The translations under genes were made by a program, and so were the position numbers. Of a DNA stretch of 64,000 bases, positions 1 through 64,000 are shown piece after piece. The DNA is from Eledone cirrhosa (Eukaryota). How positions within the stretch are numbered: position 1 is the first letter of the stretch; every line of letters begins with the position of its first letter. The notes under the pieces were generated by a model that was given only the letters and a program-made list of their open reading frames with translations, did no database searches and was not told the DNA's origin. The stretch covers positions 26,412,001 to 26,476,000 of the forward strand of contig OZ024748.1 of assembly GCA_964016885.1 (NCBI GenBank). Direction: 5' to 3'.

Positions 1-3000
1 CACAAGTTGCTAGCACAATGCATACATCACCTGAAACAACAGTTGTTTCATCTCCAGAACACACCTCTTTGACACCTACAGATGAACTTACTAGTATTGA
101 ATATTCAACTGAGACATCAACTAAAAAACCACTACCTATAAAGACACCTACAAGCACAGCAGAAAAGATCAATGAAACTAGAACAGACACAACAGCAACA
201 ACATCACAGCTTCCTTCAACAAGTGAAATCCATATAGAAACTCCTAAATCTACATCTGAACTGCCTCATATAACTGACATTGAAACAAGTACAGTGGAAA
301 GAACAACACAAATTACAGATATTGAAACTGAACGCACAACTCAGACAGAAATTACACCACAACTAACAACATCTCCTGAAGAAACAACTCTGTCTACTCA
401 GGTAGAGGACATCGAAAAGGTGACACCAACACAAGTTGTTAGCACAATGCATACATCACCTGAAACGACAGTTGTTTCATCTCCAGAACACACCTCTATA
501 ACACCTACAGATGAACTTACTAGTATTGAATATACAACTGAGACATCAACTGAAAAACCACTACCTATCAAGACACCTACAAGCACAGCAGAAAAGATCA
601 CTGAAACTAGAACAGACACAACAGCAACAACGTCACAGCGTCCTTCAACAAGTGAAATCCATATAGAAACTCCTAAATCTACTTCTGAACTGCCTCATAT
701 AACTGACATTGAAACAAGTACAGTGCAAAGAACAACACAAGTTACAGATATTGAAACTGAGCGCACAACTCAGACAGAAATTACACCACAACAAACAACA
801 TCTGAAGAAACAACACTGTCTACTCAGGTAGAGGACATCGTAAAGGTGACACCAACACAAGTTGCTAGCACAATGCATACATCACCTGAAACAACAGTTG
901 TTTCATCTCCAGAAATCACCTCTATAACACCTACAGATGAACTTACTAGTATTGAATATACAACTGTGACATCAACTCAAAAACCACTACCTATAAAGAC
1001 ACCTACAAGCACAGCTGAAAAGATCACTGAAACTATAACAGACACAACAGCAACAACATCACAGCTTCTTTCAACAAGTGAAACCCATATAGAAACTCCT
1101 AAATCTACTTCTGAACTGCCTCATATAACTGACATTGAAACAAGTACAGTGGAAAGAACAACACAAATTACAGATATTGAAACTGAACGCACAACTCAGA
1201 CAGAAATTACACCACAACTAACAACATCTCCTGAAGAAACAACTCTGTCTACTCAGGTAGAGGACATCGAAAGGGTGCCACCAACACAAGTTGCTAGCAC
1301 AATGCATACATCACCTGAAACAACAGTTGTTTCATCTCCAGAACACACCTCTATAACACCTACAGATGAACTCACTAGTATTGAATATACAACTGAGACA
1401 TCAACTGAAAAACCACTACCTATCAAGACACCTACAAGCACAGCAGAAAAGATAACTGAAACTATAATAGACACAACAGCAACAACATCACAGCTTCCTT
1501 CAACAAGTGAAATCCATATAGAAACTCCTAAATCTAGTTCTGAACTGCCTCATATAACAGACATTGAAACAAGTACAATGGAAAGAACAACACAAATTAC
1601 AGATATTGAAACTGAACGCACAACTCAGACAGAAATTACACCACAACTAACAACATCTCCTGAAGAAACAACTCTGTCTACTCAGGTAGAGGACATTGAA
1701 AAGGTGACACCAACACAAGTTGCTAGCACAATGCATACATCACCTGAAACAACAGTTGTTTCATCTCCAGAACACACCTCTTTGACACCTACAGATGAAC
1801 TTACTAGTATTGAATATTCAACTGAGACATCAACTGAAATACCACTACCTATCAGGACACCTACAAGCACAGCAGAAAAGATCAATGAAACTAGAACAGA
1901 CACAACAGCAACAACATCACAGCTTCCTTCAACAAGTGAAATCCATATAGAAACTCCTAAATCTACTTCTGAACTGCCTCATATAACTGAAATTGAAACA
2001 AGTACAGTGGAAAGAACAACACAAATTACAGATATTGAAACTGAACGCACAACTCAGACAGAAATTACACCACAACTAACAACATCTCCTGAAGAAACAA
2101 CTCTGTCTACTCAGGTAGAGGACATCGAAAAGGTGACACCAACACAAGTTGTTAGCACAATGCATACATTACCTGAAACGACAGTTGTTTCATCTCCAGA
2201 ACACACCTCTATAACACCTACAGATGAACTTACTAGTATTGAATATACAACTGAGACATCAACTGAAAAACCACTACCTATAAAGACACCTACAAGCACA
2301 GCAGAAAAGATCACTGAAACTAGAACAGACACAACAGCAACAACATCACAGCTTCCTTCAACAAGTGAAATCCATATAGAAACTCCTAAATCAACTTCTG
2401 AACAGCCTCATATAACAGACATTGAAACAAGTACAATGGAAAGAACAACACAAATTACAGATATTGAAACTGAACGCACAACTCAGACTGAAATTACACC
2501 ACAACTAACAACATCTCCTGAAGAAACAACTCTGTCTACTCAGGTAGAGGACATCGAAAGGGTGACACCAACACAAGTTGCTAGTACAATGCATACATCA
2601 CCTGAAACAACAGTTGTTTCATCTCCAGAACACACCTCTATAACACCTACAGATGAACTTACTAGTATTGAATATACAACTGAGACATCAACTGAAAAAC
2701 CACTACCTATAAAGACACCTACAAGCACAGCAGAAAAGATAACTGAAACTATAATAGACACAACAGCAACAACATCACAGCTTCCTTCAACAAGTGAAAT
2801 CCATATAGAAACTCCTAAATCTACTTCTGAACTGCCTCATATAACAGACATTGAAACAAGTACAATGGAAAGAACAACACAAATTACAGATATTGAAACT
2901 GAACGCACAACTCAGACAGAAATTACACCACAACTAACAACATCTCCTGAAGAAACAACTCTGTCTACTCAGGTAGAGGACATTGAAAAGGTGACACCAA

Positions 3001-6000
3001 CACAAGTTGCTAGCACAATGCATACATCACCTGAAACAACAGTTGTTTCATCTCCAGAACACACCTCTTTGACACCTACAGATGAACTTACTAGTATTGA
3101 ATATTCAACTGAGACATCAACTAAAAAACCACTACCTATAAAGACACCTACAAGCACAGCAGAAAAGATCAATGAAACTAGAACAGACACAACAGCAACA
3201 ACATCACAGCTTCCTTCAACAAGTGAAATCCATATAGAAACTCCTAAATCTACATCTGAACTGCCTCATATAACTGACATTGAAACAAGTACAGTGGAAA
3301 GAACAACACAAATTACAGATATTGAAACTGAACGCACAACTCAGACAGAAATTACACCACAACTAACAACATCTCCTGAAGAAACAACTCTGTCTACTCA
3401 GGTAGAGGACATCGAAAAGGTGACACCAACACAAGTTGTTAGCACAATGCATACATCACCTGAAACGACAGTTGTTTCATCTCCAGAACACACCTCTATA
3501 ACACCTACAGATGAACTTACTAGTATTGAATATACAACTGAGACATCAACTGAAAAACCACTACCTATCAAGACACCTACAAGCACAGCAGAAAAGATCA
3601 CTGAAACTAGAACAGACACAACAGCAACAACGTCACAGCGTCCTTCAACAAGTGAAATCCATATAGAAACTCCTAAATCTACTTCTGAACTGCCTCATAT
3701 AACTGACATTGAAACAAGTACAGTGCAAAGAACAACACAAGTTACAGATATTGAAACTGAGCGCACAACTCAGACAGAAATTACACCACAACAAACAACA
3801 TCTGAAGAAACAACACTGTCTACTCAGGTAGAGGACATCGTAAAGGTGACACCAACACAAGTTGCTAGCACAATGCATACATCACCTGAAACAACAGTTG
3901 TTTCATCTCCAGAAATCACCTCTATAACACCTACAGATGAACTTACTAGTATTGAATATACAACTGTGACATCAACTCAAAAACCACTACCTATAAAGAC
4001 ACCTACAAGCACAGCTGAAAAGATCACTGAAACTATAACAGACACAACAGCAACAACATCACAGCTTCTTTCAACAAGTGAAACCCATATAGAAACTCCT
4101 AAATCTACTTCTGAACTGCCTCATATAACTGACATTGAAACAAGTACAGTGGAAAGAACAACACAAATTACAGATATTGAAACTGAACGCACAACTCAGA
4201 CAGAAATTACACCACAACTAACAACATCTCCTGAAGAAACAACTCTGTCTACTCAGGTAGAGGACATCGAAAGGGTGCCACCAACACAAGTTGCTAGCAC
4301 AATGCATACATCACCTGAAACAACAGTTGTTTCATCTCCAGAACACACCTCTATAACACCTACAGATGAACTCACTAGTATTGAATATACAACTGAGACA
4401 TCAACTGAAAAACCACTACCTATCAAGACACCTACAAGCACAGCAGAAAAGATAACTGAAACTATAATAGACACAACAGCAACAACATCACAGCTTCCTT
4501 CAACAAGTGAAATCCATATAGAAACTCCTAAATCTAGTTCTGAACTGCCTCATATAACAGACATTGAAACAAGTACAATGGAAAGAACAACACAAATTAC
4601 AGATATTGAAACTGAACGCACAACTCAGACAGAAATTACACCACAACTAACAACATCTCCTGAAGAAACAACTCTGTCTACTCAGGTAGAGGACATTGAA
4701 AAGGTGACACCAACACAAGTTGCTAGCACAATGCATACATCACCTGAAACAACAGTTGTTTCATCTCCAGAACACACCTCTTTGACACCTACAGATGAAC
4801 TTACTAGTATTGAATATTCAACTGAGACATCAACTGAAATACCACTACCTATCAGGACACCTACAAGCACAGCAGAAAAGATCAATGAAACTAGAACAGA
4901 CACAACAGCAACAACATCACAGCTTCCTTCAACAAGTGAAATCCATATAGAAACTCCTAAATCTACTTCTGAACTGCCTCATATAACTGAAATTGAAACA
5001 AGTACAGTGGAAAGAACAACACAAATTACAGATATTGAAACTGAACGCACAACTCAGACAGAAATTACACCACAACTAACAACATCTCCTGAAGAAACAA
5101 CTCTGTCTACTCAGGTAGAGGACATCGAAAAGGTGACACCAACACAAGTTGTTAGCACAATGCATACATTACCTGAAACGACAGTTGTTTCATCTCCAGA
5201 ACACACCTCTATAACACCTACAGATGAACTTACTAGTATTGAATATACAACTGAGACATCAACTGAAAAACCACTACCTATAAAGACACCTACAAGCACA
5301 GCAGAAAAGATCACTGAAACTAGAACAGACACAACAGCAACAACATCACAGCTTCCTTCAACAAGTGAAATCCATATAGAAACTCCTAAATCAACTTCTG
5401 AACAGCCTCATATAACAGACATTGAAACAAGTACAATGGAAAGAACAACACAAATTACAGATATTGAAACTGAACGCACAACTCAGACTGAAATTACACC
5501 ACAACTAACAACATCTCCTGAAGAAACAACTCTGTCTACTCAGGTAGAGGACATCGAAAGGGTGACACCAACACAAGTTGCTAGTACAATGCATACATCA
5601 CCTGAAACAACAGTTGTTTCATCTCCAGAACACACCTCTATAACACCTACAGATGAACTTACTAGTATTGAATATACAACTGAGACATCAACTGAAAAAC
5701 CACTACCTATAAAGACACCTACAAGCACAGCAGAAAAGATAACTGAAACTATAATAGACACAACAGCAACAACATCACAGCTTCCTTCAACAAGTGAAAT
5801 CCATATAGAAACTCCTAAATCTACTTCTGAACTGCCTCATATAACAGACATTGAAACAAGTACAATGGAAAGAACAACACAAATTACAGATATTGAAACT
5901 GAACGCACAACTCAGACAGAAATTACACCACAACTAACAACATCTCCTGAAGAAACAACTCTGTCTACTCAGGTAGAGGACATTGAAAAGGTGACACCAA

Positions 6001-6122
6001 CACAAGTTGCTAGCACAATGCATACATCACCTGAAACAACAGTTGTTTCATCTCCAGAACACACCTCTTTGACACCTACAGATGAACTTACTAGTATTGA
6101 ATATTCAACTGAGACATCAACT
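1..6122 (+). repeat. Higher-order repeat, period 3000 bp (7 units: 6x429 + 426)
   Basis: Lines 1-3000 appear identical to 3001-6000, including rare variants (cag cgt cct ~638/3638, act caa aaa ~978/3978, aca tta cct ~2169/5169). The match continues to about 6122, where aaa becomes gaa. Confidence 0.93.
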
Positions 6123-9100
6123 GAAAAACCACTACCTATCAGGACACCTACAAGCACAGCAGAAAAGATCAATGAAACTAGAACAGACACAACAGCAACA
6201 ACATTACAGCTTCCTTCAACAAGTGAAATCCATATAGAAACTCCTAAATCTACTTCTGAACTGCCTCATATAACTGACATTGAAACAAGTACAGTGGAAC
6301 GAACAACACAAGTTACAGATATTGAAACTGAGCGCACAACTCAGACAGAAATTACACCACAACAAACAACATCTGAAGAAACAACACTGTCTACTCAAGT
6401 AGAGGACATCGTAAAGGTGACACCAACACAAGTTGCTAGCACAATGCATACATCACCTGAAACAACAGTTGTTTCATCTCCAGAAATCACCTCTATAACA
6501 CCTACAGATGAACTTACTAGTATTGAATATACAACTGTGACATCAACTGAAAAACCACTACCTATAAAGACACCTACAAGCACAGCTGAAAAGATCACTG
6601 AAACTATAACAGACACAACAGCAAGAACATCACAGCTTCCTTCAACAAGTGAAATCCATATAGAAAATCCTAAATCTACTTCTGAACAGCCTCATATAAC
6701 TGACATTGAAACAAGTACAGTGGAAAGAACAACACAAATTACAGATATTGAAACTGAACGCACAACTCAGACAGAAATTACACCACAACTAACAACATCT
6801 CCTGAAGAAACAACTCTGTCTACTCAGGTAGAGGACATCGAAAGGGTGACACCAACACAAGTTGCTAGCACAATGCATACATCACCTGAAACAACAGTTG
6901 TTTCATCTCCAGAACACACCTCTATAACACCTACACATGAACTTACTAGTATTGAATATACAACTGAGACATCAACTGAAAAACCACTACCTATAAAGAC
7001 ACCTACAAGCACAGCTGAAAAGATCACTGAAACTATAACAGACACAACAGCAACAACAACACAGCTTCCTTCAACAAGTGAAATCCATATAGAAACTCCT
7101 AAATCTACTTCTGAACTGCCTCATATAACTGACATTGAAACAAGTACAGTGGAAAGAACAACACAAATTACAGATATTGAAACTGAACGCACAACTCAGA
7201 CAGAAATTACACCACAACTAACAACATCTCCTGAAGAAACAACACTGTCTACTCAGGTAGAGGACATCGTAAAGGTGACACCAACACAAGTTGCTAGCAC
7301 AATGCATACATCACCTGAAACAACAGTTGTTTCATCTCCAGAACACACCTCTATAACACCTACAGATGAACTTACTAGTATTGAATATACAACTGAGACA
7401 TCAACTGAAAAACCACTACCTATAAAGACACCTACAAGCACAGCAGAAAAGATCACTGAAACTATAACAGACACAACAGCAACAACATTACAGCTTCCTT
7501 CAACAAGTGAAATCCATATAGAAACTCCTAAATCTACTTCTGAACTGCCTCATATAACTGACATTGAAACAAGTACAGTGGAAAGAACAACACAAGTTAC
7601 AGATATTGAAACTGAGCACACAACTCAGACAGAAATTACACCACAACAAACAACATCTCCTGAAGAAACAACACTGTCTACTCAGGTAGAGGACATCGTA
7701 AAGGTGACACCAACACAAGTTGCTAGCACAATGCATACATCACCTGAAACAACAGTTGTTTCATCTCCAGAACACACCTCTATAACACCTACAGATGAAC
7801 TTACTAGTATTGAATATACAACTGAGACATCAACTGAAAAACCACTACCTATAAAGACACCTACAAGCACAGCAGAAAAGATCACTGAAACTAGAACAGA
7901 CACAACAGCAACAACATCACAGCTTCCTTCAACAAGTGAAATCCATATAGAAACTCCTAAATCTACTTCTGAACAGCCTCATATAACAGACATTGAAACA
8001 AGTACGATGGAAAGAACAACACAAATTACAGATATTGAAACTGAGCGCACAACTCAGACAGAAATTACACCACAACTAACAACATCTCCTGAAGAAACAA
8101 CTCTGTCTACTCAGGTAGAGGACATCGAAAAGGTGACACCAACACAAGTTGCTAGCACAATGCATACATCACCTGAAACAACAGTTGTTTCATCTCCAGA
8201 ACACACCCCTATAACACCTACAGATGAACTTACTAGTATTGAATATACAACTGAGACATCAACTGAAAAACCACTACCTATAAAGACACCTACAAGCACA
8301 GCAGAAAAGATCACTGAAACTAGAACAGACACAACAGCAACAACATCACAGCTTCCTTCAACAAGTGAAATCCATATAGAAACTCCTAAATCTACTTCTG
8401 AACTGCCTCATATAACTGACATTGAAACAAGTACAGTGGAAAGAACAACACAAGTTACAGATATTGAAACTGAGCGGACAACTCAGACAGAAATTACACC
8501 ACAACAAACAACATCTCCTGAAGAAACAACACTGTCTACTCAGGTAGAGGACATCGTAAAGGTGACACCAACACAAGTTGCTAGCACAATGCATACATCA
8601 CCTGAAACAACAGTTGTTTCATCTCCAGAACACACCTCTATAACACCTACAGATGAACTTACTAGTATTGAATATACAACTGAGACATCAACTGAAAAAC
8701 CACTACCTATCAAGACACCTACAAGCACAGCAGAAAAGATCACTGAAACTAGAACAGACACAACAGCAACAACATCACAGCTTCCTTCAACAAGTGAAAT
8801 CCATATAGAAACTCCTAAATCTACTTCTGAACTGCCTCATATAACTGACATTGAAACAAGTACAGTGGAAGGAACAACACAAGTTACAGATATTGAAACT
8901 GAGCGGACAACTCAGACAGAAATTACACCACAACAAACAACATCTCCTGAAGAAACAACTCTGTCTACTCAGGTAGAGGACATCGTAAAGGTGACACCAA
9001 CACAAGTTGCTAGCACAATGCATACATCACCTGAAACAACAGTTGTTTCATCTCCAGAACACACCTCTATAACACCTACAGATGAACTTACTAGTATTGA

Positions 9101-12100
9101 ATATACAACTGAGACATCAACTGAAAAACCACTACCTATCAAGACACCTACAAGCACAGCAGAAAAGATCACTGAAACTAGAACAGACACAACAGCAACA
9201 ACATCACAGCTTCCTTCAACAAGTGAAATCCATATAGAAACTCCTAAATCTACTTCTGAACTGCCTCATATAACTGACATTGAAACAAGTACAGTGGAAG
9301 GAACAACACAAGTTACAGATATTGAAACTGAGCGGACAACTCAGACAGAAATTACACCACAACAAACAACATCTCCTGAAGAAACAACACTGTCTACTCA
9401 GGTAGAGGACATCGTAAAGGTGACACCAACACAAGTTGCTAGCACAATGCATACATCACCTGAAACAACAGTTGTTTCATCTCCAGAACACACCCCTATA
9501 ACACCTACAGATGAACTTACTAGTATTGAATATAGAACTGAGACATCAACTGAAAAATCACTACCTACGATAACACCTACAAGCACAGCAGAAAAGATCA
9601 CTGAAACTATAACAGACACAACAGCAACAACATCACAGCTTCCTTCAACAAGTGAAATCCATATAGAAACTCCTAAATCTACTTCTGAACTGCCTCATAT
9701 AACTGACATTGAAACAAGTACAGTGGAAAGAACAACACAAATTACAGATATTGAAACTGAACGCACAACTCAGACAGAAATTACACCACAACTAACAACA
9801 TCTCCTGAAGAAACAACTCTGTCTACTCAGGTAGAGGACATCGAAAAGGTGACACCAACACAAGTTGCTAGCACAATGCATACATCACCTGAAACAACAG
9901 TTGTTTCATCTCCAGAACACACCTCTATAACACCTACAGATGAACTTACTAGTATTGAATATACAACTGAGACATCAACTGAAAAACCACTACCTATAAA
10001 GACACCTACAAGCACAGCTGAAAAGATCACTGAAACTATAACAGACACAACAGCAACAACATCACAGCTTCCTTCAACAAGTGAAATCCATATAGAAACT
10101 CCTAAATCTACTTCTGAACTGCCTCATATAACTGACATTGAAACAAGTACAGTGGAAAGAACAACACAAGTTACAGATATTGAAACTGAGCGGACAACTC
10201 AGACAGAAATTACACCACAACAAACAACATCTCCTGAAGAAACAACACTGTCTACTCAGGTAGAGGACATCGAAAAGGTGACACCAACACAAGTTGCTAG
10301 CACAATGCATATATCACCTGAAACAACAGTTGTTTCATCTCCTGAACACACCTCTATAACACCTACAGATGAACTTACTAGTATTGAATATACAACTGAG
10401 ACATCAACTGAAAAATCACTACCTGCGATAACACCTACAAGCACAGCAGAAAAGATCACTGAAACTAGAACAGACACAACAGCAACAACATCACAGCTTC
10501 CTTCAACAAGTGAAATCCATATAGAAACTCCTAAATCTACTTCTGAACTGCCTCATATAACTGACATTGAAACAAGTACAGTGGAAGGAACAACACAAGT
10601 TACAGATATTGAAACTGAGCGGACAACTCAGACAGAAATTACACCACAACAAACAACATCTCCTGAAGAAACAACACTGTCTACTCAGGTAGAGGACATC
10701 GTAAAGGTGACACCAACACAAGTTGCTAGCACAATGCATACATCACCTGAAACAACAGTTGTTTCATCTCCAGAACACACCTCTATAACACCTACAGATG
10801 AACTTACTAGTATTGAATATACAACTGAGACATCAACTGAAAAACCACTACCTATCAAGACACCTACAAGCACAGCAGAAAAGATCACTGAAACTAGAAC
10901 AGACACAACAGCAACAACATCACAGCTTCCTTCAACAAGTGAAATCCATATAGAAACTCCTAAATCTACTTCTGAACTGCCTCATATAACAGACATTGAA
11001 ACAAGTACAATGGAAAGAACAACACAAATTATAGATATTGAAACTGAACGCACAACTCAGACAGAAATTACACCACAACTAACAACATCTCCTGAAGAAA
11101 CAACTCTGTCTACTCAGGTAGAGGACATCGAAAAGGTGACACCAACACAAGTTGCTAGCACAATGCATACATCACATGAAACAACAGTTGTTTCATCTCC
11201 TGAACACACCTCTATAACACCTACAGATGAACTTACTAGTATTGAATATAGAACTGAGACATCAACTGAAAAATCACTACCTACGATAACACCTACAAGC
11301 ACAGCAGAAAAGATCACTGAAACTAGAACAGACACAACAGCAACAACATCACAGCTTCCTTCAACAAGTGAAATCCATATAGAAACTCCTAAATCTACTT
11401 CTGAACTGCCTCATATAACTGACATTGAAACAAGTACAGTGGAAAGAACAACACAAATTACAGATATTGAAACTGAACACACAACTCAGACAGAAATTAC
11501 ACCACAACTAACAACATCTCCTGAAAAAACAACTCTGTCTACTCAGGTAGAGGACATCGAAAAGGTGATACCAACACAAGTTGCTAGCACAAAGCATAAA
11601 TCACCTGAAACAACAGTTGTTTCATCTCCAGAACACACCTCTTTGACACCTACAGATGAACTTACTAGTATTGAAGATTCAACTGAGACATCAACTAAAA
11701 AACCACTACCTATAAAGACACCTACAAGCACAGCAGAAAAGATCAATGAAACTAGAACAGACACAACAGCAACAACATCACAGCTTCCTTCAACAAGTGA
11801 AATCCATATAGAAACTCCTAAATCTACATCTGAACTGCCTCATATAACTGACATTGAAACAAGTACAGTGGAAAGAACAACACAAATTACAGATATTGAA
11901 ACTGAACGCACAACTCAGACAGAAATTACACCACAACTAACAACATCTCCTGAAGAAACAACTCTGTCTACTCAGGTAGAGGACATCGAAAAGGTGACAC
12001 CAACACAAGTTGTTAGCACAATGCATACATCACCTGAAACGACAGTTGTTTCATCTCCAGAACACACCCCTATAACACCTACAGATGAACTTACTAGTAT

Positions 12101-51100: not shown

Positions 51101-54100
51101 TACATCACCTGAAACAACAGTTGTTTCATCTCCAGAACACACCTCTATAACACTTACAGATGAACTTATTAGTATTGAATATACAACTGAGACATCAACT
51201 GAAAAACCACTACCTATCAAGACACCTACAAGCACAGCAGAAAAGATCACTGAAACTATAACAGACACAGCAGCAACAACATCACAGCTTCCTTCAACAA
51301 GTGAAATCCATATAGAAACTCCTAAATCTACTTCTGAACTGCCTCATATAACTGACATTGAAACAAGTACAGTGGAAAGAACAACACAAATTACAGATCT
51401 TGAAACTGAACGCACAACTCAGACAGAAATTACACCACAACTAACAACATCTCCTGAAGAAACAACTCTGTCTACTCAGGTAGAGGACATCGAAAAGGTG
51501 ACACCAACACAAGTTGCTAGCACAATGCATACATCACCTGAAACAACAGTTGTTTCATCTCCAGAACACACCTCTATAACACCTACAGATGAACTTACTA
51601 GTATTGAATATACAACTGAGACATCAACTGAAAAACCACTACCTATAAAGACACCTACAAGCACAGCAGAAAAGATCACTGAAACTAGAACAGACACAAC
51701 AGCAACGACATCACAGCTTCCTTTAACAACTGAAATCCATATAGAAACTCCTAAATCTACTTCTGAACTGCCTCATATAACTGACATTGAAACAAGTACA
51801 GTGGAAAGAACAACACAAATTACAGATATTGAAACTGAACGCACAACTCAGACAGAAATTACACCACAACTAACAACATCTCCTGAAGAAACAACTCTGT
51901 CTACTCAGGTAGAGGACATCGAAAGGGTGACACCAACACAAGTTGCTAGCACAATGCATACATCACCTGAAACAACAGTTGTTTCATCTCCAGAACACAC
52001 CTCTATAACACCTACAGATGAACTTACTAGTATTGAATATACAACTGAGACATCAACTGAAAAACCACTACCTATGACAACAAGTACAAGCACAGCAGAA
52101 AAGATCACTGAAACTAGAACAGACACAACAGCAACAACATCACAGCTTCCTTCAACAAGTGAAATCCATATAGAAACTCCTAAATCTACTTCTGAACTGC
52201 CTCATATAACTGACATTGAAACAAGTACAGTGGAAAGAACAACACAAGTTACAGATATTGAAACTGAGCGCACAACTCAGACAGAAATTACACCACAACA
52301 CACAACATCTCCTGAAGAAACAACACTGTCTACTCAGGTAGAGGACATCGTAAAGGTGACAGCAACACAAGTTGCTAGCACAATGCATACATCACCTGAA
52401 ACGACAGTTGTTTCATCTCCTGAACACACCTCTATGACACCTACAGATGAACATACTATTATTGAATATAGAACTGAGACATCAACTGAAAAACCACTAC
52501 CTATAAAGACACCTACAAGCACAGCTGAAAAGATCACTGAAACTATAACAGACATAACAGCAACAACATCACAGCTTCCTTCAACAAGTGAAATCCATAT
52601 AGAAACTCCTAAATCTACTTCTGAACTGCCTCATATAACTGACATTGAAACAAGTACAGTGGAAAGAACAACACACGTTACAGATATTGAAACTGAACGC
52701 ACAACTCAGACAGAAATTACACCACAACTAACAACATCTCCTGAAGAAACAACTCTGTCTACTCAGGTAGAGGACATCGAAAAGGTGACACCAACACAAG
52801 TTGCTAGCACAATGCATACATCACCTGAAAGAACAGTTGTTTCATCTCCTGAACACACTTCTATAACACCTACAGATGAACTCACTATTAAAGAATACAT
52901 AACTGAGACATCAACAGAAAAATCACTACCTATGACAACACCTACACGCACAGCAGAAAAGATCACTGAAACTAGAACAGACACAGCAGCAACAACATCA
53001 CAGCTTCCTTCAACAAGTGAAATCCATATAGAAACTCATAAATCTACTTCTGAACTGCCTCATATAACTGACATTGAAAAAAGTACAGTGGAAAGAACAA
53101 CACAAGTTACAAATATTGAAACTAAGCGCACAACTCAGACAGAAATTACACCACAACAAACAACATCTCCTGAAGAAACAACGCTGTCTACTCAGGTAGA
53201 GGACATCGTAAAGGTGACACCAACACAAGTTGCTAGCACAATGCATACATCACCTGAAACAACAGTTGTTTCATCTCCTGAACACACCTCTATAACACCT
53301 ACAGATGAACTTACTAGTATTGAATATACAACTGAGACATCAACTGAAAAACCACTACCTATCAAGACACATACAAGCACAGCAGAAAAGATCACTGAAA
53401 CTAGAACAGACACAACAGCAACAACATCACAGCTTCCTTCAACAAGTGAAATCCATATAGAAACTCCTAAATCTACTTCTGAACTGCCTCATATAACTGA
53501 CATTGAAACAAGTACAGTGGAAAGAACAACACAAATTACAGATATTGAGACTGAACGCACAACTCAGACAGAAAGTACACCACAACTAACAACATCTCCT
53601 GAAGAAACAACTCTGTCTACTCAGGTAGAGGACATCGAAAGGGTGACACCAACACAAGTTGCTAGCACAATGCATACATCACCTGAAACAAAAGTTGTTT
53701 CATCTTCTGAACACACCTCTATAACACCTACAGATGAACTTACTAGTATTGAATATAGAACTGAGACATCAACTGAAAAATCACTACCTACGATAACACC
53801 TACAAGCACAGCAGAAAAGATCACTGAAAATATAACAGACACAACAGCAACAACGTCACAGCTTCCTTCAACAAGTGAAATCCATATAGAAACTCCTAAA
53901 TCTACTTCTGAACTGCCTCATATAACTGACATTGAAACAAGTACAGTGGAAAGAACAACACAAGTTACAGATATTGAAACTGAGCGCACAACTCAGACAG
54001 AAATTACACCACAACAAACAACATCTGAAGAAACAACACTGTCTACTCAGGTAGAGGACATCGTAAAGGTGACACCAACACAAGTTGCTAGCACAATGCA

Positions 54101-57100
54101 TACATCACCTGAAACAACAGTTGTTTCGTCTCCAGAACACACCTCTATAACACCTACACATGAACTTACTAGTATTGAATATACAACTGAGACATCAACT
54201 GAAAAACCACTACCTATAAAGACACCTACAAGCACAGCTGAAAAGATCACTGAAACTATAACAGACACAACAGCAACAACATCAAAGCTTCCTTCAACAA
54301 GTGAAACCCATATAGAAACTCCTAAATCTACTTCTGAACTGCCTCATATAACTTACATTGAAACAAGTACAGTGGAAAGAACAACACAAATTACAGATAT
54401 TGAAACTGAACGCACAACTCAGACAGAAATTACACCACAACTAACAACATCTCCTGAAGAAACAAGTCTGTCTACTCAGGTAGAGGACATCGAAAGGGTG
54501 CCACCAACACAAGTTGCTAGCACAATGCATACATCACCTGAAACAACAGTTGTTTCATCTCCAGAACACACCTCTATAACACCTACAGATGAACTTACTA
54601 GTATTGAATATAGAACTGAGACATCAACTGAAAAATCACTACCTACGATAACACCTACAAGCACAGCAGAAAAGATCACTGAAACTATAACAGACACAAC
54701 AGCAACAACATCACAGCTTCCTTCAACAAGTGAAATCCATATAGAAACTCCTAAATCTACTTCTGAACTGCCTCATATAACTGACATTGAAACAAGTACA
54801 GTGGAAAGAACAACACAAATTACAGATATTGAAACTGAACGCAGAACTCAGACAGAAATTACACCACAACTAACAACATCTCCTGAAGAAGCAACTCTGT
54901 CTACTCAGGTAGAGGACATCGAAAGGGTGACACCAACACAAGTTGCTAGCACAATGCATACATCACCTGAAACAACAGTTGTTTCATCTCCAGAACACAC
55001 CTCTATAACACCTACAGATGAACTTACTAGTATTGAATATATAACTGAGACATCAACTGAAAAACCACTACCTATCAAGACACCTACAAGCACAGCAGAA
55101 AAGATCACTGAACCTAGAACAGACACAACAGCAACAACATCACAGCTTCCTTCAACAAGTGAAATCCATATAGAAACTCCTAAATCTACTTCTGAACTGC
55201 CTCATATAACTGACATTGAAACAAGTACAGTGGAAAGAACAACACAAATTACAGATATTGAAACTGAACGCACAACTCAGACAGAAATTACACCACAACT
55301 AACAACATCTCCTGAAGAAACAACTCTGTCTACTCAGGTAGAGGACATCGAAAGGGTGACACCAACACAAGTTGCTAGCACAATGCATACATCACCTGAA
55401 ACAACAGTTGTTTCATCTCCAGAAATCACCTCTATAACACCTACAGATGAACTTACTAGTATTGAATATACAACTGTGACATCAACTGAAAAACCACTAC
55501 CTATAAAGACACCTACAAGCACAGCTGAAAAGATCACTGAAACTAGAACAGACACAACAGCAACAACATCACAGCTTCCTTCAGCAAGTGAAATCCATAT
55601 AGAAACTCCTAAATCTACTTCTGAACTGCCTCATATAACAGACATTGAAACAAGTACAATGGAAAGAACAACACAAATTACAGATATTGAAACGGAACGC
55701 ACAACTCAGACAGAAATTACACCACAACTAACAACATCTCCTGAAGAAACAACTCTGTCTACTCAGGTAGAGGACATCAAAAGGGTGACACCAACACAAG
55801 TTGCTAGCACAATGCATACATCACCTGAAACAACAGTTGTTTCATCTCCAGAACACACCTCTATAACACCTACAGATGAACTTACTAGTATTGAATATAC
55901 AACTGAGACATCAACTGAAAAACCACTACCTATAAAGACACCTACAAGCACAGCTGAAAAGATCACTGAAACTATAACAGACACAACATCAACAACAACA
56001 CAGCTTCCTTCAACAAGTGAAATCCATATAGAAACTCCTAAATCTACTTCTGAACTGCCTCATATAACTGACATTGAAACAAGTACAGTGGAAAGAACAA
56101 CACAAATTACAGATATTGAAACTGAACGCACAACTCAGACAGAAATTACACCACAACTAACAACATCTCCTGAAGAAACAACTCTGTCTACTCAGGTAGA
56201 GGACATCGAAAGGGTGACACCAACACAAGTTGCTAGCACAATGCATACATCACCTGAAACAACAGTTGTTTCATCTCCAGAACACACCTCTATAACACCT
56301 ACAGATGAACTTACTAGTATTGAATATACAACTGAGACATCAACTGAAAAACCACTACCTATAAAGACACCTACAAGCACAGCAGAAAAGATCACTGAAA
56401 CTATAACAGACACAACAGCAACAACATCACAGCTTCCTTCAACAAGTGAAATCCATATAGAAACTCCTAAATCTACTTCTGAACTGCCTCATATAACTGA
56501 CATTGAAACAAGTACAGTGGAAAGAACAACACAAATTACAGATATTGAAACTGAACGCACAACTCAGACAGAAATTACACCACAACTAACAACATCTCCT
56601 GAAGAAACAACTCTGTCTACTCAGGTAGAGGACATCGAAAAGGTGACACCAACACAAGTTGCTAGCACAATGCATACATCACCTGAAACAACAGTTGTTT
56701 CATCTCCAGAACACACCTCTATAACACCTACAAATGAACTTACTAGTATTGAATATACAACTGAGACATCAACTGAAAAACCACTACCTATAAAGACACC
56801 TACAAGCACAGCTGAAAAGATCACTGAAACTATAACAGACACAACAGCAACAACATCACAGCTTCCTTCAACAAGTGAAATCCATATAGAAACTCCTAAA
56901 TCTACTTCTGAACTGCCTCATATAACTGACGTTGAAACAAGTACGATGGAAAGAACAACACAAATTACAGATATTGAAACTGAACGCACAACTCAGACAG
57001 AAATTACACCACAACTAACAACATCTCCTGAAGAAACAACTCTGTCTACTCAGGTAGAGGACATCGAAAAGGTGACACCAACACGAGTTGCTAGCACAAT

Positions 57101-60100
57101 GCATACATCACCTGAAACAACAGTTGTTTCATCTCCTGAACACACCTCTATAACATCTACAGATGAACTTACTAGTATTGAATATAGAACTGAGACATCA
57201 ACTGAAAAATCACTACCTACGATAACACCTACAAGCACAGCAGAAAAGATCACTGAAACTATAACAGACACAACAGCAACAACATCACAGCTTCCTTCAA
57301 CAAGTGAAATCCATATAGAAACTCCTAAATCTACTTCTGAACTGCCTCATATAACTGACATTGAAACAAGTACAGTGGAAAGGACAACACAAATTACAGA
57401 TATTGAAACTGAACGCACAACTCAGACAGAAATTACACCACAACTAACAACATCTCCTGAAGAAACAACTCTGTCTACTCAGGTAGAGGACATCGTAAAG
57501 GTGACACCAACACAAGTTGCTAGCACAATGCATACATCACCTGAAACAACAGTTGTTTCGTCTCCAGAACACACCTCTATAACACCTACAGATGAACTTA
57601 CTAGTATTGAATATACAACTGAGACATCAACTGAAAAACCACTACCTATCAAGACACCTACAAGCACGGCAGAAAAGATCACTGAAACTATAACAGACAC
57701 AGTAGCAACAACATCACAGCTTCCTTCAACAAGTGAAATCCATATAGAAACTCCTAAATCTACTTCTGAACTGCCTTATACAACTGACATTGAAACAAGT
57801 ACAGCGGAAAGGACAACACAAATTACAGATATTGAAACTGAACGCACAACTCAGACAGAAATTACACCACAACTAACAACATCTCCTGAAGAAACAACTC
57901 TGTCTACTCAGGTAGAGGACATCGAAAGGGTGACACCAACACAAGTTGCTAGCACAATGCATACATCACCTGAAACAACAGTTGTTTCATCTCCAGAACA
58001 CACCTCTATAACACCTACAGATGAACTTACTAGTATTGAATATACAACTGAGACATCAACTGAAAAACCACTACCTATGACAACAAGTACAAGCACAGCA
58101 GAAAAGATCACTGAAACTAGAACAGACACAACAGCAACAACATCACAGCTTCCTTCAACAAGTGAAATCCATATAGAAACTCCTAAATCTACTTCTGAAC
58201 TGCCTCATATAACTGACATTGAAACAAGTACAGTGGAAAGAACAACACAAGTTACAGATATTGAAACTGAGCGCACAACTCAGACAGAAATTACACCACA
58301 ACACACAACATCTCCTGAAGAAACAACACTGTCTACTCAGGTAGAGGACATCAAAAGGGTGACACCAACACAAGTTGCTAGCACAATGCATACATCACCT
58401 GAAACAACAGTTGTTTCATCTCCAGAACACACCTCTATAACACCTACAGATGAACTTACTAGTATTGAATATAGAACTGAGACATCAACTGAAAAATCAC
58501 TACCTACGATAACACCTACAAGCACAGCAGAAAAGATCACTGAAACTATAACAGACACAACAGCAACAACATCACAGCTTCCTTCAACAAGTGAAATCCA
58601 TATAGAAACTCCTAAATCTACTTCTGAACTGCCTCATATAACTGACATTGAAACAAGTACAGTGGAAAGGACAACACAAATTACAGATATTGAAACTGAA
58701 CGCACAACTCAGACAGAAATTACACCACAACTAACAACATCTCCTGAAGAAACAACTCTGTCTACTCAGGTAGAGGACATCGAAAAGGTGACACCAACAC
58801 AAGTTGCTAGCACAATGCATACATCACCTGAAACAACAGTTGTTTCATCTCCAGAACACACCTCTATAACACCTACAGATGAACTTACTAGTATTGAATA
58901 TACAACTGAGACATCAACTGAAAAACCACTACCTATCAAGACACCTACAAGCACGGCAGAAAAGATCACTGAAACTATAACAGACACAGTAGCAACAACA
59001 TCACAGCTTCCTTCAACAAGTGAAATCCATATAGAAACTCCTAAATCTACTTCTGAACTGCCTTATACAACTGACATTGAAACAAGTACAGCGGAAAGGA
59101 CAACACAAATTACAGATATTGAAACTGAACGCACAACTCAGACAGAAATTACACCACAACTAACAACATCTCCTGAAGAAACAACTCTGTCTACTCAGGT
59201 AGAGGACATCGTAAAGGTGACACCAACACAAGTTGCTAGCACAATGCATACATCACCTGAAACAACAGTTGTTTCATCTCCAGAACGCACCTCTATAACA
59301 CCTACAGATGAACTTACTAGTATTGAATATACAACTGAGACATCAACTGAAAAACCACTACCTATCAAGACACCTACAAGCACAGCGGAAAAGATCACTG
59401 AAACTAGAACAGACACAACAGCAACAACATCACAGCTTCCTTTAAGAACAACACAAGTTACAGATATTGAAACTGAGCGCACAACTCAGACAGAAATTAC
59501 ACCACAACAAACAACATCTCCTAAAGAAACAACACTGTCTACTCATATAACTGACATTGAAACAAGTACAGTGGAAAGAACAACACAAATTACAGATATT
59601 GAAACTGAACGCACAACTCAGACAGAAATTACACCACAACTAACAACATCTGAAGAAACAACTCTGTCAACTCAGGTAGAGGACATCGAAAAGGTGACAC
59701 CAACAACAGTTGTTTCATCTCCAGAACACACCTCTATAACACCTACAGGTGAACTTACTAGTATTGAATATACAACTGAGACATCAACTGAAAAACCACT
59801 ACCTGTCAAGACACATACAAGCACCGCAGAAAAGATCACTGAAACTAGAACAGACACAACAGCAACAACATCACAGTTTCCTTTAACAAGTGAAATCCAT
59901 ATAGAAACTCATAAATCTACTTCTGAACTGCCTCATATAACTGACATTGAAACAAGTACAGTGGAAAGAACAACACAAATTACAGATATTGAAACTGAAC
60001 GCACAACTCAAGCAGAAATTACACCACAACAAACAACATCTCCTGAAGAAACAACTCTGTCTGCTCAGGTAGAGGACATCGAAAAGGTGACACCAACACA

Positions 60101-63100
60101 AGTTGCTAGAACAATGCATACATCACCTGAAACAACAGTTGTTTCATCTCCAGAACACACCTCTATAACACCTACAAATGAACTTACTAGTATTGAATAT
60201 ACAACTGAGACATCAACTGAAAAACCACTACCTATAAAGACACCTACAAGCACAGCTGAAAAGATCACTGAAACTATAACAGACACAACAGCAACAACAT
60301 CACAGCTTCCTTCAACAAGTGAAATCCATATAGAAACTCCTAAATCTACTTCTGAACTGCCTCATATAACTGACGTTGAAACAAGTACGATGGAAAGAAC
60401 AACACAAATTACAGATATTGAAACTGAACGCACAACTCAGACAGAAATTACACCACAACTAACAACATCTCCTGAAGAAACAACTCTGTCTACTCAGGTA
60501 GAGGACATCGAAAAGGTGACACCAACACGAGTTGCTAGCACAATGCATACATCACCTGAAACAACAGTTGTTTCATCTCCTGAACACACCTCTATAACAT
60601 CTACAGATGAACTTACTAGTATTGAATATAGAACTGAGACATCAACTGAAAAATCACTACCTACGATAACACCTACAAGCACAGCAGAAAAGATCACTGA
60701 AACTATAACAGACACAACAGCAACAACATCACAGCTTCCTTCAACAAGTGAAATCCATATAGAAACTCCTAAATCTACTTCTGAACTGCCTCATATAACT
60801 GACATTGAAACAAGTACAGTGGAAAGGACAACACAAATTACAGATATTGAAACTGAACGCACAACTCAGACAGAAATTACACCACAACTAACAACATCTC
60901 CTGAAGAAACAACTCTGTCTACTCAGGTAGAGGACATCGTAAAGGTGACACCAACACAAGTTGCTAGCACAATGCATACATCACCTGAAACAACAGTTGT
61001 TTCGTCTCCAGAACACACCTCTATAACACCTACAGATGAACTTACTAGTATTGAATATACAACTGAGACATCAACTGAAAAACCACTACCTATCAAGACA
61101 CCTACAAGCACGGCAGAAAAGATCACTGAAACTATAACAGACACAGTAGCAACAACATCACAGCTTCCTTCAACAAGTGAAATCCATATAGAAACTCCTA
61201 AATCTACTTCTGAACTGCCTTATACAACTGACATTGAAACAAGTACAGCGGAAAGGACAACACAAATTACAGATATTGAAACTGAACGCACAACTCAGAC
61301 AGAAATTACACCACAACTAACAACATCTCCTGAAGAAACAACTCTGTCTACTCAGGTAGAGGACATCGAAAGGGTGACACCAACACAAGTTGCTAGCACA
61401 ATGCATACATCACCTGAAACAACAGTTGTTTCATCTCCAGAACACACCTCTATAACACCTACAGATGAACTTACTAGTATTGAATATACAACTGAGACAT
61501 CAACTGAAAAACCACTACCTATGACAACAAGTACAAGCACAGCAGAAAAGATCACTGAAACTAGAACAGACACAACAGCAACAACATCACAGCTTCCTTC
61601 AACAAGTGAAATCCATATAGAAACTCCTAAATCTACTTCTGAACTGCCTCATATAACTGACATTGAAACAAGTACAGTGGAAAGAACAACACAAGTTACA
61701 GATATTGAAACTGAGCGCACAACTCAGACAGAAATTACACCACAACACACAACATCTCCTGAAGAAACAACACTGTCTACTCAGGTAGAGGACATCAAAA
61801 GGGTGACACCAACACAAGTTGCTAGCACAATGCATACATCACCTGAAACAACAGTTGTTTCATCTCCAGAACACACCTCTATAACACCTACAGATGAACT
61901 TACTAGTATTGAATATAGAACTGAGACATCAACTGAAAAATCACTACCTACGATAACACCTACAAGCACAGCAGAAAAGATCACTGAAACTATAACAGAC
62001 ACAACAGCAACAACATCACAGCTTCCTTCAACAAGTGAAATCCATATAGAAACTCCTAAATCTACTTCTGAACTGCCTCATATAACTGACATTGAAACAA
62101 GTACAGTGGAAAGGACAACACAAATTACAGATATTGAAACTGAACGCACAACTCAGACAGAAATTACACCACAACTAACAACATCTCCTGAAGAAACAAC
62201 TCTGTCTACTCAGGTAGAGGACATCGAAAAGGTGACACCAACACAAGTTGCTAGCACAATGCATACATCACCTGAAACAACAGTTGTTTCATCTCCAGAA
62301 CACACCTCTATAACACCTACAGATGAACTTACTAGTATTGAATATACAACTGAGACATCAACTGAAAAACCACTACCTATCAAGACACCTACAAGCACGG
62401 CAGAAAAGATCACTGAAACTATAACAGACACAGTAGCAACAACATCACAGCTTCCTTCAACAAGTGAAATCCATATAGAAACTCCTAAATCTACTTCTGA
62501 ACTGCCTTATACAACTGACATTGAAACAAGTACAGCGGAAAGGACAACACAAATTACAGATATTGAAACTGAACGCACAACTCAGACAGAAATTACACCA
62601 CAACTAACAACATCTCCTGAAGAAACAACTCTGTCTACTCAGGTAGAGGACATCGTAAAGGTGACACCAACACAAGTTGCTAGCACAATGCATACATCAC
62701 CTGAAACAACAGTTGTTTCATCTCCAGAACGCACCTCTATAACACCTACAGATGAACTTACTAGTATTGAATATACAACTGAGACATCAACTGAAAAACC
62801 ACTACCTATCAAGACACCTACAAGCACAGCGGAAAAGATCACTGAAACTAGAACAGACACAACAGCAACAACATCACAGCTTCCTTTAAGAACAACACAA
62901 GTTACAGATATTGAAACTGAGCGCACAACTCAGACAGAAATTACACCACAACAAACAACATCTCCTAAAGAAACAACACTGTCTACTCATATAACTGACA
63001 TTGAAACAAGTACAGTGGAAAGAACAACACAAATTACAGATATTGAAACTGAACGCACAACTCAGACAGAAATTACACCACAACTAACAACATCTGAAGA

Positions 63101-63998
63101 AACAACTCTGTCAACTCAGGTAGAGGACATCGAAAAGGTGACACCAACAACAGTTGTTTCATCTCCAGAACACACCTCTATAACACCTACAGGTGAACTT
63201 ACTAGTATTGAATATACAACTGAGACATCAACTGAAAAACCACTACCTGTCAAGACACATACAAGCACCGCAGAAAAGATCACTGAAACTAGAACAGACA
63301 CAACAGCAACAACATCACAGTTTCCTTTAACAAGTGAAATCCATATAGAAACTCATAAATCTACTTCTGAACTGCCTCATATAACTGACATTGAAACAAG
63401 TACAGTGGAAAGAACAACACAAATTACAGATATTGAAACTGAACGCACAACTCAAGCAGAAATTACACCACAACAAACAACATCTCCTGAAGAAACAACT
63501 CTGTCTGCTCAGGTAGAGGACATCGAAAAGGTGACACCAACACAAGTTGCTAGAACAATGCATACATCACCTGAAACAACAGTTGTTTCATCTCCAGAAC
63601 ACACCTCTATAACACTTACAGATGAACTTATTAGTATTGAATATACAACTGAGACATCAACTGAAAAACCACTACCTATCAAGACACCTACAAGCACAGC
63701 AGAAAAGATCACTGAAACTATAACAGACACAGCAGCAACAACATCACAGCTTCCTTCAACAAGTGAAATCCATATAGAAACTCCTAAATCTACTTCTGAA
63801 CTGCCTCATATAACTGACATTGAAACAAGTACAGTGGAAAGAACAACACAAATTACAGATATTGAAACTGAACGCACAACTCAGACAGAAATTACACCAC
63901 AACTAACAACATCTCCTGAAGAAACAACTCTGTCTACTCAGGTAGAGGACATCGAAAAGGTGACACCAACACAAGTTGCTAGCACAATGCATACATCA
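3..63998 (+). CDS. Giant mucin-like PTS (Thr/Ser/Pro/Glu-rich) tandem-repeat protein, internal fragment; ORF open at both window edges (~21,332 codons)
   Basis: Frame 3 translates caa gtt gct agc aca atg cat aca tca cct gaa... (QVASTMHTSPE...) from position 3 and is still in frame at the end (...atg cat aca tca, 63996-63998). The antisense landmark ORFs keep the same coordinate mod 3 from 398 to 63509, so there is no net frameshift. An in-frame ATG lies at 18-20 and in nearly every unit, yet the ORF track lists no + strand ORF, which fits the absence of any stop. About 50% of the unit is P/T/S, typical of mucin O-glycosylated domains. Confidence 0.88.
14970..21854 (+). repeat. Higher-order repeat, period 3432 bp (8x429), two tandem copies
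   Basis: Rare variants recur at +3432: ctt tct tca (~15216/18648), aga aat gag (16830/20262), gag gaa atc (~17130/20562), cag gaa gag (~17552/20984), gac ttc gta (~17991/21423). Confidence 0.92.
23650..27905 (+). repeat. Higher-order duplication, offset 2574 bp (6x429)
   Basis: tct gta aca at 23655/26229 and gaa cta act at ~24101/26675. The unit order 23984-24413-24842 is repeated at 26558-26987-27416. Confidence 0.8.
27940..31060 (+). repeat. Higher-order repeat, period 1716 bp (4x429)
   Basis: The markers aca aca aca aca (~28071/29787), gac ttc gaa, aaa tta cta, gac gtt gaa aca agt atg atg and aca cga gtt all recur at +1716. Confidence 0.82.
32564..33436 (+). repeat. Rearranged in-frame unit pair (480 bp + 393 bp), copy 1
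   Basis: A 99-bp segment, 32814-32912 (RTTQVTD...TTLST), replaces 48 bp (TSEIHIETPKSTSELP). A 36-bp deletion follows at ~33077 (cca aca|aca gtt gtt). Confidence 0.9.
36869..37741 (+). repeat. Rearranged in-frame unit pair (480 + 393 bp), copy 2
   Basis: Same junctions as copy 1: cct tta|aga aca at 37119, tct act|cat ata at 37217, and the 36-bp deletion at ~37382. Confidence 0.9.
45010..46700 (+). repeat. Higher-order repeat, period 858 bp (2x429)
   Basis: aca agt ctg, gtg cca cca, cgc aga act and gaa cct aga recur at +858 (units 45029/45887 and 45458/46316). Confidence 0.75.
50177..51046 (+). repeat. Rearranged in-frame unit pair (477 + 393 bp), copy 3
   Basis: Same junctions (50427-50525; deletion ~50687), plus an extra one-codon deletion (tct gaa gaa, ~50633). 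Confidence 0.9.
59195..60064 (+). repeat. Rearranged in-frame unit pair (477 + 393 bp), copy 4
   Basis: Junctions at 59445-59543, codon deletion ~59651, 36-bp deletion ~59705. Confidence 0.9.
62639..63508 (+). repeat. Rearranged in-frame unit pair (477 + 393 bp), copy 5
   Basis: Junctions at 62889-62987, codon deletion ~63095, 36-bp deletion ~63149. Confidence 0.9.
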
Positions 63999-64000
63999 CC

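Follow-up and report, generated by a model that had tools for sequence, protein, structure and literature searches.

Mucins and giant proteins

Gel-forming mucins (MUC2, MUC5AC, MUC5B, MUC6 and MUC19) combine an exon of Pro/Thr/Ser (PTS)-rich repeats with N-terminal VWD/C8/TIL domains, CysD domains and a C-terminal cystine knot. Membrane mucins (MUC1, MUC4, MUC12, MUC16 and MUC17) carry a transmembrane helix together with SEA or NIDO/AMOP/EGF domains. Here we analyse a stretch of 64,000 nucleotides (nt) from the octopod Eledone cirrhosa (the window; contig OZ024748.1, below C8, positions 26,412,001-26,476,000, + strand), to which 200 kb of flank was added on either side; the assembly has a size of 3.0 Gb. 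The window is probably the middle of a 299,571-nt exon in an octopod gene, the product of which would be mucin-like, secreted and about 100,260 residues long, carrying VWA folds at its two ends.

Human MUC12, MUC2, MUC4, MUC5AC and MUC5B likewise have one giant PTS-rich tandem-repeat exon in which the frame is kept (PMC13345508, a 2026 preprint). The longest human MUC12 allele encodes 23,080 amino acids (aa) and its exon is called the largest in the human genome, so that MUC16 and TTN, taken as the yardstick in an earlier, sequence-only reading of the window, are a dated measure of exon size. The protein predicted here is more than 4 times as long as that allele, and it differs from the human mucins in its VWA ends, in having no VWD, CysD, CTCK, SEA or transmembrane element, and in containing only 7 Cys. 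PKZILLA-1 (45,212 aa, 17 exons) is about 25% larger than titin (10.1101/2024.01.29.577497), the spidroin gene AgSp1 spans 42,270 bp in two exons (PMC6553539), and predicted Omnitrophota proteins reach 85,804 and 147,155 aa (10.64898/2026.06.07.730766). With all of these the protein shares an extreme length derived from tandem modules. At about 2.8 times titin and more than twice PKZILLA-1, the predicted chain exceeds the eukaryotic records found; among the predicted proteins of all organisms it ranks below the larger of the Omnitrophota proteins. No description of the gene, its accessions or a comparable eukaryotic exon was found in the literature, where subscription journals were mostly not covered.

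A predicted coding exon of 299.6 kb

On exact translation, frame 3 of the + strand holds no stop among the 21,332 codons of the window, and the remaining five frames hold 466-2,539 stops each. Tandem Repeats Finder describes the window as a single array with a period of 429 nt, 149.1 copies and 94% matches. When the flanks are included, the open frame runs from C8:26,254,023 to 26,553,722, covering 99,900 codons with no N within. The sequence-only reading had described the frame as open across the window and as passing both edges, and it was right on both counts. Its proposal of an intron-free coding stretch in an animal gene was right as well. A giant single exon is predicted, and the size then given, at least 64 kb, was too modest. 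The locus does have the look of a satellite, as had been anticipated, and the 429-nt tandem array is a coding frame nonetheless.

The giant exon, here numbered exon 4 (Table 1), begins after an acceptor with a TACTAAC branch point, a pyrimidine tract and TAG, and ends at the donor AAG/GTAAGA. It opens with a short unique segment, followed by a 9-aa Thr-rich repeat (about 6,700 codons), a unique stretch of about 330 codons, the array of 143-aa units and, at the 3' end, a unique stretch of about 370 codons. Units downstream of a Thr/Pro insert in the array form a separate subtype with lengths of 414 and 432 nt. Exons 2-5 join in frame at all three junctions and predict a chain of 100,244 aa with 7 Cys, none of them in the last exon. 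No transmembrane-like segment was found in this chain, the maximum 19-residue hydropathy being 1.3. With a candidate exon 1 the predicted product has about 100,260 aa and a mass of 10.9 MDa. That exon 4 is one coding exon of 299.6 kb between two VWA exons seems fairly likely.

Ser and Thr account for 42% of the 99,857 codons of exon 4 (42,432 residues), and Ser, Thr and Pro together for 51%. The 143-aa unit is rich in Thr, Ser, Glu and Pro, with 25 acidic residues per unit versus 7 Lys/Arg. It matches no named family, which agrees with the earlier view of a mucin-like protein without a recognised repeat, and the peptide TTQITDIETER, put forward for proteomic searches, is indeed a tryptic product of the consensus unit in silico. 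Pfam matches of the repeat to DUF7109 and HPS6 had no passing stretches and were set aside as composition noise.

Selection on the reading frame

A protein-coding frame is under selection along the whole array. When the array was split from anchor to anchor, 634 segments were obtained, 474 of them distinct in DNA, and all 12 unit length classes are multiples of 3. Only 4 of the 31 alignment gap classes are not; these form two compensating pairs, situated in a poorly alignable insert segment and in seven recombinant units.

Variants were analysed in the 551 ungapped units of the 634, the 83 length variants being excluded. There are 554 distinct single-base variants, comprising 417 missense, 137 synonymous and no stop changes, where a codon-aware count expects 24.6 stops (P about 6e-17). 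In a spectrum-matched simulation 19.5 +/- 2.9 stops were expected, with a minimum of 8 in 20,001 draws. In the two shifted frames stops arise about as often as expected (40 vs 33.0, and 27 vs 26.6). Private variants include 0 stops versus 7.5 expected, and the deficit is present in every sixth of the array (P from 4.5e-3 to 1.5e-7), being strongest in the last. Of 919 possible missense changes 417 (45%) were seen, and of 324 possible synonymous changes 137 (42%). Since these fractions are similar, the frame is constrained and most residues are not. The signal AATAAA is absent from the array, an uninformative result given that no more than 3 single changes could create it and 2 of these are stops.

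Expression and splicing

Four sequencing runs (X1, X2, X5 and X7) were compared with the 3' end of the gene. Contig 17 of run X5 (2,244 nt), from the same species, joins the two exons directly: its match to the 3' part of exon 4 has 1 difference in 1,004 nt, its match to the last exon has none in 985 nt, and precisely the 2,112 nt of the predicted intron are skipped. X5 has no cover in three unique bins of this intron; X2 covers it as DNA, with 0 differences in long pieces. The 3' end of the giant exon is spliced to the last exon. X5 also holds 0.32 of the sampled repeat words.

X1 contains 0.45 of the 31-letter words of the repeat although its identity to the unique exons is only about 90%, and X7 gives no exon cover, yet contains 0.26 of them. 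This could mean that relatives share a conserved unit, or that trace carry-over is visible only in high-copy sequence.

Terminal VWA domains

The N-terminal VWA domain (VWA1) matches PF00092 with an E value of 3e-31, above the Pfam gathering cut-off. Its metal ion-dependent adhesion site (MIDAS), DxSxS..T..D, is intact, and D13, S15, S17, T86 and D117 are invariant in 12 of 12 family rows. The VWA exon is 86% identical to the sequences P0008 and P0161, the latter of which stops at the same donor. A search of VWA1 against 1.84 billion proteins returned multi-VWA proteins and P0008, with no full orthologue among the 150 matches listed.

The last exon of the gene (VWA2) has no Pfam match, yet 7 of the 12 family rows match PF00092 here. 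Its AlphaFold2 model has a predicted local distance difference test (pLDDT) score of 79 and matches integrin I domains, mussel PTMP1 and the A3 domain of von Willebrand factor (best E 5e-5, TM-score up to about 0.6); the Atlas matches are also VWA. On this evidence the last exon encodes a divergent VWA fold. In the C-terminal MIDAS the Asp is kept and DxSxS is degenerate. A complex prediction for VWA1 and VWA2, based on the idea of head-to-tail contact, returned a score of 0.00, which is no answer and speaks neither way.

The gene and its orthologues are without the C-terminal Cys of VWA1 and both VWA2 Cys of most paralogues, and an additional Cys is present in their VWA1. The disulfides could be free or rearranged.

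The second-best match of VWA1 in a PDB sequence search was PTMP1 of the mussel byssus (E 1.5e-23; PDB 4cn8, 4cn9 and 4cnb), a molluscan extracellular protein with two VWA domains, like the ends of the protein described here. PTMP1 binds collagen (PMC4754843). It has 454 aa without a giant PTS spacer, and collagen binding is a property of PTMP1 that would extend to the octopod domains by analogy. The CAMPs of snail mucus have another architecture (PMC10475054), and the skin-mucus proteome of octopus contains VWA proteins and mucins in general (PMC11431876).

For the ends of the protein, the sequence-only reading had suggested VWD, CysD, SEA, EGF, CTCK, transmembrane or chitin-binding domains. 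None of these was seen in the scanned non-repeat parts, and the ends are two VWA folds instead. The large central PTS tandem-repeat exon of a gel-forming mucin is present, but VWD/C8/TIL, CysD and a C-terminal cystine knot are not, VWA being the only domain in the parts scanned. Likewise, there is no transmembrane helix with SEA or NIDO/AMOP/EGF domains, and the last exon ends its VWA fold with a stop. By predicted domain content the protein is neither a gel-forming nor a membrane mucin, and it represents a new extreme of a known design, the mucin-like central repeat exon.

A cephalopod VWA-linker-VWA family

The last exon finds CAI9735081.1 of O. vulgaris (UniRef 'Mucin-5AC-like', 885 aa) and XP_014785251.1 of O. 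bimaculoides (LOC106879988, 862 aa), which are 77-79% identical to it. In a tree that has several long branches elsewhere, the two form a group with this gene (100/100). The junction between exon 4 and the last exon is identical in both models, which also share the unique 3' region and the repeat. The 127-aa repeat in Octopus is homologous to the 143-aa unit at about 44% identity (alignment scores of 401 and 439 versus 204 +/- 14 and 194 +/- 15 for 200 shuffles), the latter unit carrying an extra internal stretch of about 17 aa. The Octopus models begin inside the repeat, hold about 2.5 units and have no N-terminal VWA; they are probably partial.

VWA1, in turn, finds XP_029635149.1 of O. sinensis (470 aa, auto-named 'collagen alpha-1(XII) chain-like') and Logan P0007. 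These show the whole design in short form, with a hydrophobic N-terminus, a VWA domain, a Thr-rich linker and a divergent VWA domain. The genome itself contains ten paralogues, in which the two VWA exons are separated by 2.4-15.7 kb. In 9 of the 10 a candidate linker exon of about 60-230 codons is present, and none was found in the tenth. Identity to the ten is 36-45% in VWA1 and 28-39% in VWA2, and the exon phases are the same, including a phase 1-1 linker exon. The unnamed cephalopod proteins with signal peptide, VWA, Thr linker and divergent VWA (XP_029635149.1, CAI9721493.1 of O. vulgaris, P0007 and the ten paralogues) thus share with this gene their exon order and phases, an N-terminal VWA with invariant MIDAS, a Thr/Pro-rich linker exon and a divergent C-terminal VWA. 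Judged from these sequences, the gene is a member of that family. It differs in its linker exon, which at 99,857 codons is over 400 times longer than those of the paralogues. A Gly-X-Y region as in collagen VI/XII is absent, Gly amounting to about 0.1% in the array and 8% in the Thr-rich block (period 9).

The ten paralogues do not appear in the papers searched, and their Octopus counterparts are auto-annotated as collagen-like. A separate contig (C107:10,283-152,060) carries dozens of near-identical VWA exons on one strand, at intervals of about 1.6-3.3 kb, and may contain a further giant gene with tandem VWA domains.

Gene structure

The coordinates are collected in Table 1. Micro-exon 2 fits well, with similar candidates in the six paralogues that were checked. 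Searches by homology and by motif left exon 1 without a firm position, and the one at 26,173,393 is a candidate only. The flanks (C8:26,212,001-26,232,400 and the flanking piece L033:2007-3058) contain decayed fragments resembling reverse transcriptase, as judged by eye, as well as long microsatellites of the (AT)n type and, at 26,223,315, a 200-N gap.

Table 1. Features of the giant-exon gene, of the window and of the paralogues.
Feature	Location	Strand	Remarks
Candidate exon 1, 15 codons, hydrophobic	C8:26,173,393-437	+	66 kb above micro-exon 2, beyond 200-N gap
Micro-exon 2, 31 nt	C8:26,239,073-103	+	12.4 kb upstream of VWA exon
VWA exon 3, 552 nt, phase 1-1	C8:26,251,515-26,252,066	+	2,068 nt upstream of exon 4
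Giant exon 4 (predicted)	C8:26,254,135-26,553,705	+	299,571 nt, 99,857 codons, phase 1-1; bounded by splice signals
Thr-rich block (9-aa repeat)	about C8:26,254,470-26,274,630	+	inside exon 4
Array of 143-aa unit, 277 kb, about 640 copies	C8:26,275,627-26,552,591	+	single interruption by in-frame insert
Thr/Pro insert, in frame	C8:26,534,298-26,535,288	+	microsatellite-like, unique flanks
Unique 3' end of exon 4	C8:26,552,592-26,553,705	+	
Last exon (divergent VWA)	C8:26,555,818 to stop at 26,556,398	+	2,112 nt downstream of exon 4
Stop-free frame	window 3..63998	+	residues 52,623-73,954 of giant exon 4 translation
429-nt (143-aa) unit, about 149 copies	window 1..64000	+	portion of the 277-kb array
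Example acceptor-like site, phase 1	window 40..57	+	
Ten paralogues	C1:280,419,779-280,752,308; C15:8,086,700-8,119,340; C37:53,748-63,148		seven clustered in 330 kb on C1

Alternative explanations

Several points weigh against a single full-length product. An acceptor-like site lies in phase 1 in at least 356 units (334 + 22), matching the phase of the VWA exon donor, and exon 4 has 17 phase-1 donor-like sites, placed in the Thr-rich block by a Thr-Gly-Lys reading. Shorter in-frame mRNAs are possible via such sites, and exon 4, being phase-symmetric, could be skipped. A contig assembled from short reads cannot establish that one molecule spans the array, no such molecule was seen, and the 5' junction and exons 1-2 are predicted only. 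Run X5 is not on record as RNA and was taken to be so from the splice. The open frame of the Thr-rich block is weak evidence, because only 285 of its 6,720 codons are one step from a stop. The main rival, which we consider unlikely, is that the gene is real and most of its mRNAs are far shorter, through in-frame internal splicing or exon skipping, and form a ladder of lengths with the 100,000-aa form rare; the internal splicing would involve exitrons, or the VWA donor joining the acceptor-like site of an internal unit. The true 5' acceptor, however, has a perfect branch point, and no sixth of the array, not even the first, contains a stop, which argues that each part is translated often enough for selection. 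In another explanation the full-length mRNA is made but ribosomes seldom finish it; the product would be polydisperse fragments, and stops would have been purged because of the mRNA decay they set off or because chains lacking the C-terminal domain are released at them. At assumed rates of 3-6 aa/s translation would take about 5-9 h, and over 300 kb ribosomes might plausibly drop off and the mRNA break. Nevertheless, the conservation of the last exon in Octopus and the strong stop deficit in the last sixth indicate that ribosomes reach the end, and this explanation seems to us very improbable.

The length of the array is as assembled. A coding array might exist and yet have been enlarged in the assembly, by false tandem duplication or by the joining of haplotypes, in which case the exon would be much shorter. 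The longest near-identical diagonals in exon 4 span 26 and 20 units (about 11 and 9 kb) and correspond to two adjacent blocks, which may be false duplications, and 268 units have an identical twin. Against this, most units are distinct, the longest exact repeat is 5,333 nt, and twins are never more than 100 units apart. Self-comparison of the exon found no long diagonal of the kind that joined haplotypes would leave and put the doubtful blocks at less than 10% of the array, and each VWA exon is single at full identity in the genome. Substantial inflation is thus improbable, though less so than unfinished translation. As for a non-coding satellite whose unit lacks stops in one frame by chance, the tandem 429-nt unit, its concerted evolution and nearly neutral missense change would fit. 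It is already refuted by 0 stops versus 19-25 expected, by control frames that gain stops, by unit lengths in multiples of 3, and by a frame that runs on into conserved coding sequence and has exons in matching phase on both sides, and we give it practically no weight.

Proposed origin and function

On balance, and with moderate confidence, we favour the reading that in the octopod one chain of about 100,260 residues is translated from an mRNA of about 301 kb, 99.6% of which is one 299.6-kb exon. The design of the family would be a signal peptide, a VWA domain, a short Thr-rich linker and a divergent VWA domain. In this gene the linker exon may have grown by in-phase tandem duplication of a unit that is already a 127-aa repeat in Octopus; unequal crossing-over in phase is suggested by the local twins and higher-order blocks. 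Selection would hold the frame open while most residues drift, which implies that length and Thr/Ser/acidic composition matter more than sequence.

Secretion would be co-translational, via a split signal peptide as predicted in the paralogues. Composition predicts dense O-glycosylation of the Ser and Thr residues, and the chain could form an extended, negatively charged, hydrated bottlebrush with a contour of up to about 25-38 um, assuming 0.25-0.38 nm per residue. The metal-binding VWA1 and the divergent VWA2 might attach the ends to collagen, other matrix proteins or cell surfaces; for the MIDAS of VWA1 this is an analogy with the collagen-binding PTMP1 (PMC4754843). We suggest that in mucus, jelly or extracellular matrix the protein may form gels or tethers of great length without covalent links. 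Polymerisation of gel-forming mucins needs the cystine knot and VWD, and since this protein has neither, a network, if any, would likely be non-covalent.

Significance

If this reading is true, the gene would contain the longest coding exon, and encode the longest animal or eukaryotic protein, that was found, a bottlebrush of tens of micrometres with a VWA clasp at each end, produced by an over 400-fold expansion of a linker exon. The locus also illustrates how such genes are missed, as all that databases contain is an 860-890-aa piece of the 3' end and, separately, a VWA piece. At this locus one can ask what defines an exon of 300 kb and protects it from internal splicing, how its mRNA is exported and kept intact, whether ribosomes get through 100,000 codons and how the chain is handled in the secretory pathway, with the short-linker paralogues as built-in controls. 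The upper limit for an animal coding exon and protein would move several-fold.

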